A stretch of DNA of 64,000 bases from Escherichia coli (GTDB taxonomy: Bacteria; Pseudomonadota; Gammaproteobacteria; Enterobacterales; Enterobacteriaceae), in NCBI RefSeq assembly GCF_044324875.1, contig NZ_CP172185.1; one strand, 5' to 3'. Shown in pieces: positions 51,721 to 58,898 of this stretch. The notes below the pieces were generated by a model that saw only the letters and a program-made list of their open reading frames with translations, was not told the DNA's origin and ran no database searches. The first letter of the stretch is position 1; the number at the start of each line of letters is the position of its first letter. The position numbers and the translations under genes were made by a program.

Positions 51721-52203
51721 TTATTTTCTTGAGCACACTATACTAATGTATCCCAGAAGAGGTCCTGTGCATAATCCTGTTGCTGCCCATAATACAGCAA
51801 GTGAAATATCAGGACCATCTGTATCCGGATAAAATCCTCCATAATAAACAGCAAATACAGTAGAGTATGCATTGAATGCAGGTAAACTACTGTTCATGCA
51901 CGGTATCTGAAGGAGTAAAAGAAGAACATACACTGTTATTATTACTGATATAATGATTGCCAACATGGCAGAAATGTGCAGGGATATCATGTAATTTATA
52001 GCAGCAATACATAACACAGACGTTGCTATACCGGGAAGTAATGAAGCATAAATTTTCTTTAATATGTCAGGCGTCGCTCCCAGAGCATAGTACCATGCCC
52101 AGCCAATAAATATAGCCCACACAGGAATATTAATCCCCGGCCATGAAGCCAGGCATGACATCCCTGCTAACAGGGCTATGGTAAGATTCATCGGTAATTT
52201 CAT
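51721..52203 (-). CDS. DUF1097-like inner membrane protein (YcdZ paralogue)
   Basis: 160 aa, about 5 TM segments. Last gene of the carboxylase operon. Resembles YcdZ (26806..27297) in length and pattern. Confidence 0.7.
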   Translation of the reverse strand: MKLPMNLTIALLAGMSCLASWPGINIPVWAIFIGWAWYYALGATPDILKKIYASLLPGIATSVLCIAAINYMISLHISAMLAIIISVIITVYVLLLLLQIPCMNSSLPAFNAYSTVFAVYYGGFYPDTDGPDISLAVLWAATGLCTGPLLGYISIVCSRK

Positions 52204-52217
52204 TTCAGACGCACCTG

Positions 52218-53204
52218 TTATGAGCCATAAGATAATGAATTAATGAGAAGGTTGAGTCTTTCATTAAATTCTTTACGGATTTCCAGAGCTTTATCCATAC
52301 TGACTTGTGAAAATGTCACACTGGAGCCGGGTGCAAGTTGAGCCAGAATATCGAGATCAGTACTCACTACTGTCCCCACTGTCATATATCCCCCTCCTGA
52401 TACAGCATCCCTGTGCAAAACTATTGGTGTGCTTCCAGAGGGAACCTGAATTGATCCCACGGGATAACAGGCATCAACGATATTTGATGGATCTGAACCA
52501 GCACCAAATGGCGGGTGCCGATCAACAAAATTAAGTGAGCGCCCTCCCTGAAACCTGAAACCTGTTCTGTCTGAATCCTTACTGATCTTCCATACATCAT
52601 CAAAAAAACTTTCAACTGATTCCTGTTTCAGGCGATGGATATACATTCCGGGTACAACACGTAATTCATTTTCTTTAGTAAAAACTGGACGTAACTCATC
52701 TGGCAGAGTGTAATTTATACGCCCTTTATTACATATTGCTTCCTGTACGGGTAATTCATCTCCGGCCTGTAACCGACGTCCTTTATAACCACCAAGACTG
52801 CCAAGGAGGTAAGTAGAACGACTTCCGGCAATAACAGGGACATTAATACCTCCCGCGATGGCAAGGTAACAGCGTACACCCACCGTGGTGTATGCGATTT
52901 TTAATATCTGTCCTTTCCGGGCTAACAGGGATGTATTCACCGGAACACTCTGATTATCCAGGGTCACCGTAAAAGGGGCACCGCTGACTGCAAAAAGAGT
53001 ATCCTGCTCAAACAAGAGTTCGGGCCCCAGTAATGTGCATTCCAGCGCTGCATCAAACGGGTGATTACCGACAAGCAAATTGGCGGTAACTAACCCTGTA
53101 CGATCTAATGCACCGGATGGCGGGATCCCGAGATGATAAAAGCCTTCTCGTCCTCCGTCCTGAACGGACGTGGATAATCCGGGCGTCAATACTTTAATTC
53201 CCAT
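52218..53204 (-). CDS. KipA/PxpC-like protein (allophanate hydrolase subunit 2 family, AHS2)
   Basis: Track ORF to 53252 trimmed to ATG 53204. 328 aa. N-terminus VLTPGLSTSVQDGGREGFYHLGIPPSGALD parallels the PxpC/YbgK N-terminus. Confidence 0.85.
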   Translation of the reverse strand: MGIKVLTPGLSTSVQDGGREGFYHLGIPPSGALDRTGLVTANLLVGNHPFDAALECTLLGPELLFEQDTLFAVSGAPFTVTLDNQSVPVNTSLLARKGQILKIAYTTVGVRCYLAIAGGINVPVIAGSRSTYLLGSLGGYKGRRLQAGDELPVQEAICNKGRINYTLPDELRPVFTKENELRVVPGMYIHRLKQESVESFFDDVWKISKDSDRTGFRFQGGRSLNFVDRHPPFGAGSDPSNIVDACYPVGSIQVPSGSTPIVLHRDAVSGGGYMTVGTVVSTDLDILAQLAPGSSVTFSQVSMDKALEIRKEFNERLNLLINSLSYGS

Positions 53205-54078
53205 ACAGTTCTCCCAGTAAATTTTTAGTATAATCTTCAGGATTTTCTTCAAATGCGTTCAAATCAAAATTTACAGGCCTGATAAGTAATTCAAAATTAC
53301 CAGATTCCACATCACTTATACATTGATTATATTGTTCAGTATTGATCGCCCTGAACTTAATGATGTCCCCTGCCCGGAAAAACACCATAGAGTCTTTGAA
53401 ATATGATAATTTCTGTTCTGTGTCATAAATCGGAGCTGGTGTTATACCGAACAATTGATACCCACCTGCCCCCCGGACTGGATATATAGCCCCGAAGCAC
53501 CCGCCATGACCAACAGAATGTTTTGGTGTATCAGTTCTGGGAACAAGATATTTTGGAACCTGGATTTGCTTTTTCCGGTCAACCATCTGATACATAAAAG
53601 GCAGCCCGGCAACGAAGCCAACCATAGAAACAAACCAGGGACTTGAATGATGGGCCTCAATAAACGTCTGAACATCCGGATATCCGTTTATTTCAGCAGC
53701 ATACTCAAGATCGGTTAATGCCGGGTTTTGATGATTATTCCGGAACCGCATCAGGGTTTCATGAGTCCATGGATCATTATACAATACAGGAATTTCAATT
53801 ATACGTGTCTGTAGTGTCATTTCTCCATTCCCGGAGAGCACATTAACATTTCGTATCTGTTGTAACAAATCATCAGGGTGTATAATGTCGGGATTAAATC
53901 TTATCTGACATGATGCATTTGCAAGGCAAATATCGAGCACACCATTAATATTTAATGATTCTATTTTTCTCGTAAGAGACAAGCTGTGAAAAAATGCTTT
54001 AAGAGACATTTCCTCACTGACTTCGATGAAAAGATGCTCATCAGCACCAAATGTATAGCGCAAATTTATATCAGTCAT
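53194..54078 (-). CDS. KipI/PxpB-like protein (allophanate hydrolase subunit 1 family, AHS1)
   Basis: 294 aa. Cyclophilin-like core pattern (...EIPVLYN...GFVAGLPFM...GGCFGAIYPVRGAGGYQLFG...). 11-nt overlap with the next gene. Confidence 0.8.
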   Translation of the reverse strand: MTDINLRYTFGADEHLFIEVSEEMSLKAFFHSLSLTRKIESLNINGVLDICLANASCQIRFNPDIIHPDDLLQQIRNVNVLSGNGEMTLQTRIIEIPVLYNDPWTHETLMRFRNNHQNPALTDLEYAAEINGYPDVQTFIEAHHSSPWFVSMVGFVAGLPFMYQMVDRKKQIQVPKYLVPRTDTPKHSVGHGGCFGAIYPVRGAGGYQLFGITPAPIYDTEQKLSYFKDSMVFFRAGDIIKFRAINTEQYNQCISDVESGNFELLIRPVNFDLNAFEENPEDYTKNLLGELYGN

Positions 54079-56850: not shown

Positions 56851-57058
56851 GGGCAAATCCACTGGATATTAGTCCCGGTTGTTTCAGCATGAATTTCGTT
56901 AAACTGCTTCATTATTTCAATCAACCCAATGACGGTACTCTCCTGAACAGTGTCACCATTCTCCAGAAACGGGGCACTATCAGGTGCTGGTTTCCGATAA
57001 AATACACCAGGTAAAGGTGAAAGAATTTCTGTAACAGCCATAACATCCTCCATGTATA

Positions 57059-57820
57059 TCAGTTTTGAGAATTTACACTTATGTCTGCCTCACGTAAGGC
57101 TTTATTTATTGCAATCAGAAGAGATAAGGCACCGGGCGTATCACTATGGACACAGACAGAAGAGAAATGAATGTCAATATCCTGATCTTCTACAGTACGA
57201 ACTTTTCCCTCCAGACAGGCACGCAGCACTTTTTTTGCGACATCATCAGGATTAAGAGGTTCAGTTCTCCGTATAAATACAATGGAACCGCTTTGATCAT
57301 AATCCCTGTCGGCATAAAACTCACAAATAACAGGATGTCCGATTTGCGTCGCTTCTTTCCAGATGGCACTACCATACATGCAATATATTCTCAATTCAGG
57401 CGCATAACTATGAAGCGTTGAGACAAAATGCTTTGCAGCATCCCGATCATGAGCAAGATGCATATACAACGCGCCATGAGGCTTAACATGGTTTACAGGC
57501 ACATTGTGTAATGTGGCAAATTCACGCAAGGCCCCCAGCTGATAAATCATGTCATTGGTGATTTCCTCTGCGGTGCAGTGAATATGACGCCGGCCAAAAC
57601 CAGCCAGATCACGATAACCGGGATGAGCACCGACAGACACACCACTGTCACGGGCGCTGATTATTGTACGGTGCATAATCCCCGGATCACCTGCATGAAA
57701 ACCTGTCGCTATATTCGCTGAGGAGATGTATGGCATAATATCAATATCCCGGATATCTCCGAGAGTCCATGCTCCAAAGCTTTCCCCCATATCAGAGCTG
57801 ATATCAATACTGCGAAGCAT
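57059..57820 (-). CDS. LamB/YcsF-family protein (PxpA-like, 5-oxoprolinase subunit A family)
   Basis: Track ORF to 57868 trimmed to ATG 57820 (GGAGGT SD). 253 aa, MLRSIDISSDMGESFGAWTLGD...HPGYRDLAGFGRR...VKPHGALY, typical of LamB_YcsF. Confidence 0.88.
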   Translation of the reverse strand: MLRSIDISSDMGESFGAWTLGDIRDIDIMPYISSANIATGFHAGDPGIMHRTIISARDSGVSVGAHPGYRDLAGFGRRHIHCTAEEITNDMIYQLGALREFATLHNVPVNHVKPHGALYMHLAHDRDAAKHFVSTLHSYAPELRIYCMYGSAIWKEATQIGHPVICEFYADRDYDQSGSIVFIRRTEPLNPDDVAKKVLRACLEGKVRTVEDQDIDIHFSSVCVHSDTPGALSLLIAINKALREADISVNSQN

Positions 57821-57962
57821 TAAAACCTCCGTCTGACAAATACGGTAACAGTATGTCATGTAGCACATTTGTTTCTTTATTGTAAATTATTATTTTTCTA
57901 TGGTAATATATTAAATTTATTTATAATTACTGTTGCAAAAATATCTTTATCAGGAAAATTTG

Positions 57963-58898
57963 ATGAACATCACACTCAGACAGATAAAATATTTCGTATC
58001 AACAGCGGAGTCCGGATCGTTATCAACTGCAGCCAAATCACTCAATATTTCACAGTCTGCGATAACAACAGCAATTCAGGGGCTTGAAAGGGACATCGGT
58101 TATAAATTACTGATTCGCTCAAAATCTGGCGTTGATTTAACAGATGAGGGAAGACTGTTCTTATACAATGCCTACAATATTATCCGGACATATGATGAGG
58201 CAATAAATACAGTGCATGTTCAGAAGCCTTTGCATGGAACAGTTTCCATTGCGGCGACTTATACAATAATGGGATATTTTTTACCTGTTCATCTGAAACA
58301 ATTTTCAAGAATTTATCCACATATAAAGCTGGAGCTTTTTGAAAATCAAAGAAGCATTATTGAAACCGGACTTCTCAGCGGAAAATATGATATTGGGATT
58401 GTAATCAATGATAATCTGACATGTCCCGATATTGTATCAGAAACACTGTTACGGTCGGAGCGCCGTATATGGTTACCATCCGGCCACCCTCTGCTGGAAA
58501 AAGAAATTCTCTCCCTGAATGATATTGTCTCAGAGCCTTTTATTATCCTTGATGTGGATGAAGCATGGGAAACAGCAAAACGTTACTGGAATACGGCCAG
58601 TACCATGCCAGATGTAATTTTACATACGCATTCTATTGAAGCTGTACGAAGTATGGTTGCGAATGATATGGGTATAACCATTCTTTCTGACATGGTTTAT
58701 CGCCCATGGTCGCTTGAAGGGAAACGTATAGAAACACGCGCATTATCTAAATCAGAAGTTTTCCCAATGAGTATTGGCCTGGCATGGCGTAATAATGTTG
58801 AGTTTACGCCTGCAATGCAGGCTTTCATCAATTATTTCAGAAAGATTTTTATGTGTTCTCCCGGTTATCAAAACCGGAATGTTGACCACTTTATCTGA
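57963..58898 (+). CDS. LysR-family transcriptional regulator
   Basis: Track ORF 57933.. trimmed to ATG 57963. 311 aa. N-terminal HTH MNITLRQIKYFVSTAESGSLSTAAKSLNISQSAITTAIQGLE. Divergent from the carboxylase operon. Confidence 0.9.
   Translation: MNITLRQIKYFVSTAESGSLSTAAKSLNISQSAITTAIQGLERDIGYKLLIRSKSGVDLTDEGRLFLYNAYNIIRTYDEAINTVHVQKPLHGTVSIAATYTIMGYFLPVHLKQFSRIYPHIKLELFENQRSIIETGLLSGKYDIGIVINDNLTCPDIVSETLLRSERRIWLPSGHPLLEKEILSLNDIVSEPFIILDVDEAWETAKRYWNTASTMPDVILHTHSIEAVRSMVANDMGITILSDMVYRPWSLEGKRIETRALSKSEVFPMSIGLAWRNNVEFTPAMQAFINYFRKIFMCSPGYQNRNVDHFI

Follow-up and report, generated by a model that had tools for sequence, protein, structure and literature searches.

A stretch of 64,000 nucleotides of Escherichia coli DNA (contig NZ_CP172185.1, assembly GCF_044324875.1; hereafter, the window) carries at positions 51,721 to 58,898 an operon of six minus-strand genes and a divergent gene of a LysR-family regulator (Table 1). 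The operon encodes, in this order, a LamB/YcsF protein resembling the 5-oxoprolinase subunit PxpA, a biotin carboxyl carrier protein (hereafter BCCP), a biotin carboxylase (BC), two carboxyltransferase subunits of the KipI/PxpB and KipA/PxpC types, and a DUF1097 membrane protein. It is a hybrid, in which the BCCP and BC genes are set between pxpA and the KipI-like gene. We propose below that its products open a small lactam; in this strain the carrier gene is interrupted by the insertion sequence IS2. An earlier description of the operon, made from the sequence alone (the original prediction), gave coordinates and spacings of the six genes that agree with the listing of open reading frames (ORFs): the gaps measure 17 nt between pxpA and the BCCP gene, 10 nt between the latter and the BC gene, 9 nt between the BC and KipI-like genes and 14 nt between the KipA-like and DUF1097 genes, while the KipI-like and KipA-like genes overlap by 11 nt. 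The distance of 142 bp to the LysR gene, given in the same description, holds with the RefSeq ATG start at 57963; the longest ORF of this gene starts from TTG at 57933. As for the second gene, which was described as running from 57041 to 55460, its 81-aa BCCP product stands, but a single ORF does not exist, the gene being split by IS2. A promoter scan of the 142-bp control region gave two overlapping sigma-70-like matches on the minus strand (57914-57879), the matches overall being not above chance, and an Rfam scan of the operon gave no match.

Table 1. Features of the operon, of the inserted element and of the neighbouring genes (positions in the window)
Feature	Coordinates	Strand	Basis
DUF1097 membrane protein, 160 aa, last operon gene	51721..52203	-	Pfam PF06496, 1e-18
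KipA/PxpC-like carboxyltransferase subunit (CT domains A + B), 328 aa	52218..53204	-	Pfam PF02626 CT_A_B, 1e-84
KipI/PxpB-like carboxyltransferase subunit (CT domains C + D), 294 aa	53194..54078	-	Pfam PF02682 CT_C_D, 3e-36
Biotin carboxylase (BC), ATP-grasp, 453 aa	54088..55449	-	Pfam Biotin_carb_N, CPSase_L_D2, Biotin_carb_C
BCCP gene, 3' part: duplicated codons 59-60, codons 61-81, stop	55460..55530	-	Sequence read
IS2, 1331 bp, within the BCCP gene; transposase ORFs antiparallel to the operon	55531..56861	+	Pfam HTH_Tnp_1, rve + rve_3
BCCP gene, 5' part: codons 1-60, including EIMK with biotinyl-Lys45	56862..57041	-	Sequence read
PxpA-like LamB/YcsF protein, 253 aa, first operon gene	57059..57820	-	Pfam PF03746, E 4e-85
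Divergent control region between pxpA and the LysR gene, 142 bp	57821..57962	.	Sequence
LysR-family regulator, 311 aa from the RefSeq start	57963..58898	+	Pfam HTH_1 + LysR_substrate
MocR/GabR-type PLP-dependent regulator, neighbour	59040..60533	-	Pfam GntR + Aminotran_1_2; NCBIfam PdxR-type 409 vs cut-off 320
4-aminobutyrate transaminase (GabT)	60652..61917	+	Three NCBIfam equivalog cut-offs passed
Trp/Tyr-permease-family amino-acid transporter, neighbour	62052..63296	+	Pfam PF03222; annotated in L001

The inserted element is 99.6-99.9% identical to annotated copies of IS2 or of the IS3 family. Its transposase ORFs occupy 55577-55987 and 55945-56850, and it is bracketed by a 5-bp target duplication, CTGGA on the plus strand, at 55526-55530 and 56862-56866. 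The BCCP gene is broken after codon 60; removal of IS2 together with one CTGGA duplicate restores an 81-aa carrier with the EIMK motif (Lys45), which is 100% identical to the product of the intact gene of other E. coli strains (such a gene is annotated in strains 135 and MS 119-7). In the strain considered here the EIMK motif is kept and the last 21 residues are replaced by IS2, so that the biotinyl domain is not intact. The genes of BC, of both carboxyltransferase subunits and of the DUF1097 protein all lie downstream of the antiparallel element. Since the carrier is split and these four genes stand behind IS2, the operon is probably silent, i.e. inactive, in this strain. Among complete E. 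coli genomes none shows IS2 at this site, and the BCCP gene is intact in 11 of the 11 complete genomes carrying the island in which the operon resides. A size difference of 1336 bp suggested the same insertion in strain MS 119-7 (L098); this was rejected, its IS2/IS3-family copies being located elsewhere in the same island, at 8308-9536 and 16715-17943 of that locus, in one case inside an ABC ATPase gene, in the other between the LysR and MocR genes. Because IS2 is found in the carrier gene of no complete genome, and the copies of MS 119-7 sit elsewhere, the insertion is specific to this strain and lies in an IS-prone region; insertion sequences have hit the island repeatedly.

Profile searches against Pfam and NCBIfam confirmed the originally proposed identities of the subunits, including the assignment of the 294-aa and 328-aa proteins to CT_C_D and CT_A_B. 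The PxpA-like protein scores 278.9 on the PxpA subfamily model NF003814 (cut-off 226) and remains below all PxpA equivalog cut-offs, while the reconstructed carrier scores 121.3 bits on NF005457 (PRK07051; cut-off 87). The BC carries the catalytic motif EMNTRIQVEH, passes the equivalog model NF009471 (PRK12833; 703.7 against a cut-off of 686) and stays below the cut-off for the housekeeping accC (563 vs 626.5); these profile matches place it in a dedicated equivalog family. As to the carboxyltransferase subunits, both score higher on the urea carboxylase (UC) model TIGR02712 than on those of 5-oxoprolinase: 101 bits against 73.1 on the PxpB model TIGR00370 (cut-off 145.55) for the KipI-like protein, and 241 against 223.5 on the PxpC model NF045499 (cut-off 500) for the KipA-like one. 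The cut-off of TIGR02712 itself (1303.85) is not reached by any part, BC giving a partial score of 507.5. In a comparison with PDB sequences the KipA-like protein gave 185 bits with the UC of Kluyveromyces lactis, 165 with E. coli YbgK and 92 with MSMEG_0435. Identity to the 5-oxoprolinase subunits of E. coli K-12 amounts to 32% for PxpA, 29% for PxpB (KipI-like) and 36% for PxpC (KipA-like).

The active-site features were compared over 81 loci, namely this island and 80 related ones, which were the best loci kept from a survey of one genome per species with at least 569 relatives (a sample, not a census). Lys176 of the KipI-like protein aligns with Lys1605 of the K. lactis UC, the general base, or catalytic Lys, of the carboxyltransferase site of that enzyme (PMC5770610). 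This column is occupied by Lys in 81 of the 81 family members and by Arg in KipI of Bacillus subtilis, MSMEG_0436 and PxpB of E. coli. In the KipA-like protein the loop GAGSDPSN (GAG(S/A)DPSN in the family) aligns with AGLHPSN of UC; this UC-type PSN loop is likewise found in all 81 members and is deleted in YbgK and MSMEG_0435. All the 42 carriers of the family possess an E(V/I)MK motif. No match to a recognised ATP-binding domain was obtained with Pfam for the PxpA-like, KipI-like and KipA-like proteins. Judged by the catalytic Lys and the PSN loop, the family sits on the UC side, and the hybrid character of the operon, suggested in the original prediction, is borne out by these two features together with the profile scores.

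Three known systems are of use for comparison. Like the island, the canonical 5-oxoprolinase PxpABC (YbgJKL of E. coli; KipI, KipA and YcsF of B. subtilis) brings the LamB_YcsF, CT_C_D and CT_A_B families together with a split carboxyltransferase part, and it opens a five-membered lactam at the cost of ATP, as is proposed for the island; however, canonical PxpB has Arg and canonical PxpC lacks the PSN loop, whereas the island proteins share Lys and the loop with UC, and canonical pxpABC operons contain neither BC nor BCCP genes. Urea carboxylase, or urea amidolyase (K. lactis, PDB 3VA7 and 5I8I), unites, as the island does, BC, BCCP and the four-subdomain carboxyltransferase fold. It is a single polypeptide, while the island encodes four separate proteins, none of them reaching the TIGR02712 cut-off, and its partner is an allophanate hydrolase of the amidase-signature type instead of a LamB/YcsF protein. 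The third system, the mycobacterial pair MSMEG_0435/0436, was studied by cryo-EM in 2026: the biotin of a BCCP domain is physically bound by the KipA/KipI complex and placed as suits carboxyl transfer, a regulatory role was proposed, and urea carboxylase activity was not observed (PMC13012033). In common with the island, this system has a split KipA/KipI pair and a BC-BCCP unfused to the pair. It differs by being only a distant match (92 and 53 bits), by Arg in place of the UC Lys, by the absence of the PSN loop and by borrowing AccA3, whereas the island has dedicated BC and BCCP.

The related loci were found in Gammaproteobacteria (Pseudomonas, Marinomonas, Xenorhabdus, Kosakonia, Pectobacterium, Mangrovibacter, Lonsdalea, Salmonella), Betaproteobacteria (Burkholderia, Trinickia, Achromobacter, Rhodoferax) and Alphaproteobacteria (Bradyrhizobium, Mesorhizobium, Rhodobacterales), as well as in one Anaeromyxobacteraceae genome and one metagenome-assembled genome labelled 'Deltaproteobacteria'. 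Their constant core consists of PxpA, KipI and KipA (39-70%, 54-69% and 52-71% identical to the window proteins, respectively) in the order LysR<>PxpA-(BCCP-BC)-KipI-KipA; a divergent LysR gene is present in 69 of the 81 loci, the island included, with identities of 44-55% (median 53.5%). The loci fall into two types: in type a (43 loci) the BCCP and BC genes stand between pxpA and the KipI-like gene, in type b (31 loci) both are absent, and 7 further loci are cut off or rearranged. Pseudomonas loci of the two types share up to 94% identity over the concatenated KipI and KipA. In the type-b locus L044 the spacer retains the ribosome-binding region, the start and the first codons (MAEYSV...) of the carrier gene fused to the 3' end of the BC gene, while in another, L004, 16 to 18 N-terminal residues of the carrier are left and the junction is different. 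These remnants, with their different junctions, show that type b arose from type a by repeated deletion of the biotin module. The locus L017, from Phytopseudomonas flavescens, has no BC gene; between its pxpA and KipI-like genes, at 8820-8993, there is a partial carrier-like remnant (37% identical across some 58 residues), probably the mark of another independent partial deletion of the module. In the Salmonella enterica locus L062 (CP191473.1, 7830-10978) about 400 bp separate the LysR gene from the KipI-like and KipA-like pair that comes directly after it; no PxpA, BCCP or BC was detectable in this locus, which looks like a third, further reduced layout or a decaying locus.

The last gene of the operon behaves differently. 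DUF1097 genes are linked in none of the 80 related loci, the linkage being confined to the E. coli island, and none of the metagenomic DUF1097 relatives adjoins pxp-like genes. The idea of DUF1097 as a conserved sixth subunit was accordingly rejected, and the six-gene architecture, regarded at the outset as a unit, does not hold as such: DUF1097 occurs only in E. coli and BCCP-BC is facultative. The DUF1097 protein is possibly an uptake component specific to the E. coli island. In one metagenomic contig (Ga0268262_10000360, L105, 7001-8702) a DUF1097 gene (39% identity) adjoins, on the opposite strand, a gene of a class-III aminotransferase 36% identical to the window GabT, which hints that DUF1097 proteins may be linked to the metabolism of amino compounds. 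In other lineages the gene after KipA encodes, in 23 of the 43 type-a loci and in no type-b locus, a permease weakly resembling the NCS1 family (its match falls 0.1 bit short of the Pfam cut-off); five type-a loci have a sugar-type ABC system in its place.

As regards the product of the pathway, the gene immediately beyond the MocR-type regulator in the island encodes a 4-aminobutyrate transaminase, the equivalog matches of which are clear: 842 against a cut-off of 725 for NF005272, 766 against 747 for NF007308 and 667 against 507 for TIGR00700. Linkage to gabT recurs in six loci (this island, L002, L003, L064, L066 and L075). In Xenorhabdus stockiae (L002) and in an Enterobacteriaceae metagenome-assembled genome (L003) a gabT 78-80% identical to that of the window directly follows the KipA gene; the KipI and KipA of these two loci are the closest to those of the island among the loci compared (69% identity in Xenorhabdus). 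The other three, from distant lineages, are type-a loci with a neighbouring gabT 56-61% identical to the window gene. The equivalog matches and the sixfold linkage point to 4-aminobutyrate (GABA) as the likely product, with GabT as the proposed consumer of the ring-opened compound.

The substrate side is illuminated by Pseudomonas putida KT2440, in which a transposon-fitness study found PP_2920-2 to be needed for the use of butyrolactam (2-pyrrolidinone) as a nitrogen source; a deletion strain failed to grow on butyrolactam, and growth returned when the genes were supplied on a plasmid (10.1101/2021.12.09.472016). The regulator PP_2919 is required on butyrolactam as well, and its reporter responds specifically to this compound at 50 uM; the fitness values of PP_2919 and PP_2921 were about -4.4 to -4.6 in two adjacent conditions (10.1101/2021.12.09.472016). 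The study lists PP_2919 as a LysR family regulator, PP_2920 as a 'nitrogen-containing compound degradation enzyme' and PP_2921 as a conserved hypothetical protein (10.1101/2021.12.09.472016). In type-b loci of the P. putida group a 688-aa trehalose synthase of the TreS_stutzeri type lies upstream of the LysR gene, and DUF4130, radical SAM, Mqo (in some strains) and UDP-glucose dehydrogenase genes lie on the downstream side. Published annotations of KT2440 name PP_2918 a trehalose synthesis gene and PP_2926 udg, so the flanks fit the KT2440 numbering exactly (TreS = PP_2918, udg = PP_2926), and because of this match we place PP_2919 and PP_2920-2922 in the family considered here. This locus resembles the island in its divergent LysR gene and in the order of its LamB/PxpA, CT_C_D and CT_A_B genes; it lacks the BCCP, BC and permease genes, whereas the island has BCCP-BC after pxpA and DUF1097 at the end. 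The P. putida-group homologues share the UC-type Lys and the PSN loop with the island; identity to the window proteins is 53-54% for LysR, 59% for PxpA, 65% for KipI and 55% for KipA, and between their KipA and that of a type-a Pseudomonas it is 83%. Other loci of the group, flanked by BcsC and type VI secretion genes, were considered first as the KT2440 locus and rejected owing to a mismatch of numbering, two other members giving the match described. The LysR-PxpA-KipI-KipA cluster stands between bcsC and a type VI secretion vgrG cluster in L088-L097 and between treS and the DUF4130/radical-SAM pair in L106-L125; since it occurs in at least two chromosomal contexts within the P. putida group, it moves as a unit.

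The original prediction could assign no substrate to the operon. That statement no longer holds, as the homologues of its core (53-65% identity, same order) include the butyrolactam locus PP_2919-2922, and gabT is linked. A close homologue of the whole operon with a defined substrate had been named there as what would refute the prediction; such a tie exists for the core, and not for the whole biotin-bearing operon. The P. putida genetics also bears on the reading of the operon as encoding a second 5-oxoprolinase acting on 5-oxoproline (pyroglutamate), to which the RefSeq product names ('5-oxoprolinase subunit PxpA / B family / C family') and the PxpA subfamily match of the first protein would lead. 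In P. putida 5-oxoproline is served by a different locus, PP_4575-7, and PP_2920-2 shows no cross-complementation either with this locus or with the valerolactam enzyme OplBA (10.1101/2021.12.09.472016). Moreover, E. coli already has pxpBCA, to the products of which the island proteins are only 29-36% identical, the carboxyltransferase subunits lie far below the PxpB and PxpC equivalog cut-offs (73 vs 146 and 224 vs 500, in round figures), and the linkage is with gabT and not with glutamate metabolism. We therefore regard a second 5-oxoprolinase as highly improbable.

Hardly more credible to us is a net carboxylase, or an amidolyase, acting on an amide or ureide that is no lactam (urea, biuret or a guanidine-like compound), in which the LamB protein would play the part of allophanate hydrolase. 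The best scores of the carboxyltransferase subunits against urea carboxylase and the conservation of its catalytic Lys are in line with such an enzyme, and so is the frequent NCS1-like permease of type-a loci, this permease family being annotated for cytosine, purines, uracil, thiamine and allantoin. The permease match, however, falls just short of the Pfam cut-off, as said above, and neither an allophanate hydrolase nor an amidase-signature gene is found in the operon or its flanks. The position of Asp991 of UC (3VA7 numbering; six residues before GSP) is occupied in the phmmer alignment by Phe in the island protein, as in KipI-type proteins; this Asp we take to contact urea. Finally, the genetics of the orthologous core points to a lactam, and the gabT linkage implies an omega-amino acid as the product.

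Taken together, the data are best explained by an IS2-inactivated, horizontally acquired and LysR-controlled operon for the opening of a small lactam, in which 2-pyrrolidinone or a close omega-lactam would be activated by biotin-dependent N-carboxylation and converted to GABA, to be consumed by GabT; to this explanation as a whole we give an even chance. The substrate itself is, for E. coli, most likely 2-pyrrolidinone (gamma-butyrolactam) or a close omega-lactam, as we infer from the relatives of the operon. The mechanism that we envisage is as follows. BC would carboxylate the biotin of the 81-aa carrier at the expense of ATP and bicarbonate. The KipI-like/KipA-like pair, acting as a UC-type carboxyltransferase with Lys176 as the general base, would transfer the carboxyl group to the lactam nitrogen, and the LamB/PxpA-like subunit should hydrolyse the activated N-carboxy-lactam. 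The resulting carbamate would then lose CO2 to give the omega-amino acid; since it decarboxylates, bicarbonate would be catalytic and ATP the sole net cost. Type-b members, including those of many Pseudomonas, could borrow the housekeeping AccB/AccC. All these steps are modelled on urea amidolyase, the logic of which (to N-carboxylate an amide and then to hydrolyse it) would be the same. We propose N-carboxylation because the catalytic Lys of UC is present in 81 of 81 members and is replaced by Arg in canonical PxpB; indirect support comes from the UC-type site features in general, from the position of BCCP and BC inside the operon and from the placement of biotin in MSMEG_0435/0436.

Several points weigh against this explanation. 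We found in the literature no assayed enzyme of this family with BC/BCCP, and no paper that puts the borrowing of AccB/AccC, or a core working without biotin, to the test in this family; when biotin-dependent lactamases already characterised, or work on the PA0492-0496 cluster of P. aeruginosa, were searched for, only transcriptome mentions came up. The biotin module is missing from 31 of the 74 classifiable loci, the carboxyltransferase subunits being still up to 94% identical, and the three-gene set of P. putida is genetically sufficient on butyrolactam; unless AccBC takes its place, the module is thus dispensable. PP_2919-2922 were placed in the family by synteny and annotation, not by KT2440 sequences. 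Since identity to the P. putida-group proteins is no higher than 53-65%, the specificity of the window proteins could differ, a shift to valerolactam giving 5-aminovalerate being one possibility; GabT-type enzymes might also accept 5-aminovalerate. The permease, too, differs by lineage (NCS1-like, ABC or DUF1097). Lastly, canonical PxpABC is ATP-dependent, and phosphorylation of the substrate is assumed to be the task of its PxpB and PxpC (PMC13274462), which could apply by analogy to this family as well.

The last point leads to the strongest competitor, namely an ordinary ATP-dependent, biotin-independent lactamase that phosphorylates its substrate in the manner of PxpABC, with BC-BCCP in an accessory or regulatory role, e.g. 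sequestering KipI/KipA or being sequestered by them, as has been suggested for the mycobacterial MSMEG_0435/0436. Substrate phosphorylation is the current view of PxpBC (PMC13274462), and MSMEG_0435/0436 hold the biotin of a carboxylase and thereby lower its activity (PMC13012033). The repeated loss of BC/BCCP with little change in the carboxyltransferase subunits and the sufficiency of the P. putida three-gene locus on butyrolactam would also be expected from such an enzyme. On the other side, the UC-type Lys and PSN loop are kept in every one of the 81 members and are both lacking from the compared PxpB/PxpC (E. coli, and KipI of B. subtilis) and from MSMEG_0435/0436, the BCCP and BC genes lie inside the operon with gaps of 9-17 nt, and PxpA, KipI and KipA match no recognised ATP-binding domain. 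On balance we consider a biotin-independent lactamase unlikely here.

Going further from N-carboxylation in the island, one may imagine a whole family of biotin-dependent lactamases, in which carboxyl transfer would serve only to activate the ring amide for hydrolysis, members devoid of BC/BCCP would use the carboxybiotin of AccB, the carrier of the housekeeping acetyl-CoA carboxylase, and even the ATP requirement of PxpABC-type enzymes, a long-standing puzzle in enzymes with no recognisable ATP-binding subunit, would perhaps be met via a borrowed BC-BCCP instead of by phosphorylating the substrate directly. Such a family would be an intramolecular counterpart of urea amidolyase. This extension is tentative, and we think it clearly more likely to fail than to hold.

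With regard to origin, of 5426 complete E. coli genomes 11 carry the operon, in each case in the chromosome and with at least 99.9% identity. Its GC content is 0.433 at 51721-55530 and 0.407 at 56862-58898, against 0.522 in the next block and 0.499 in the whole window, and around the island lie IS66- and IS21-family elements, an Ag43 pseudogene and a GTPase gene. Because of the low GC content, the rarity among genomes and the IS-rich flanks, horizontal acquisition, suspected from the beginning on account of the AT-rich composition, is well supported. The block of the MocR-type regulator, GabT and the permease is present in 11 complete E. coli genomes as well, and all the 8 listed are carriers of the operon, with which the block is co-inherited. 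With a GC content of 0.52, this block (59040-63296) stands about 10 points above the operon (about 0.42); because of this difference the island may be a mosaic of two sources still making one pathway.

On its other side the operon is adjoined by a three-gene ABC importer (47498-50912 in the window), which consists of a binding protein weakly similar to aminoethylphosphonate and thiamine binders, a double permease of 562 aa and an ATPase that, at 225 aa, is unusually short; in MS 119-7 IS elements interrupt the genes of both the binding protein and the ATPase. The ABC ATPase and DUF1097 genes converge, and the spacer of 808 bp that separates their ends (50913-51720) is AT-rich (about 36% GC); no ORF above 50 aa was listed in it and no Rfam match was found.

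The locus is, most likely, one broken member of a widespread, LysR-controlled family of lactam-opening systems with a removable biotin module; the new part, the biotin-dependent chemistry, is a proposal founded on the analogy with urea amidolyase. If it is true, this would be a catalytic role of biotin not yet described, a transient N-carboxylation that breaks a stable lactam bond. Natural pairs of loci that differ mainly by the biotin module (with subunits 94% identical) make a ready-made test of KipI/KipA as carboxyltransferases, a question also raised by the 2026 finding of the mycobacterial KipA/KipI grip on the biotin of an acyl-CoA carboxylase (PMC13012033). Research on nylon monomers and 2-pyrrolidinone has, besides, a demand for lactam hydrolases and their highly sensitive LysR sensors. 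E. coli itself rarely carries the operon, an accessory trait that is broken in this strain.

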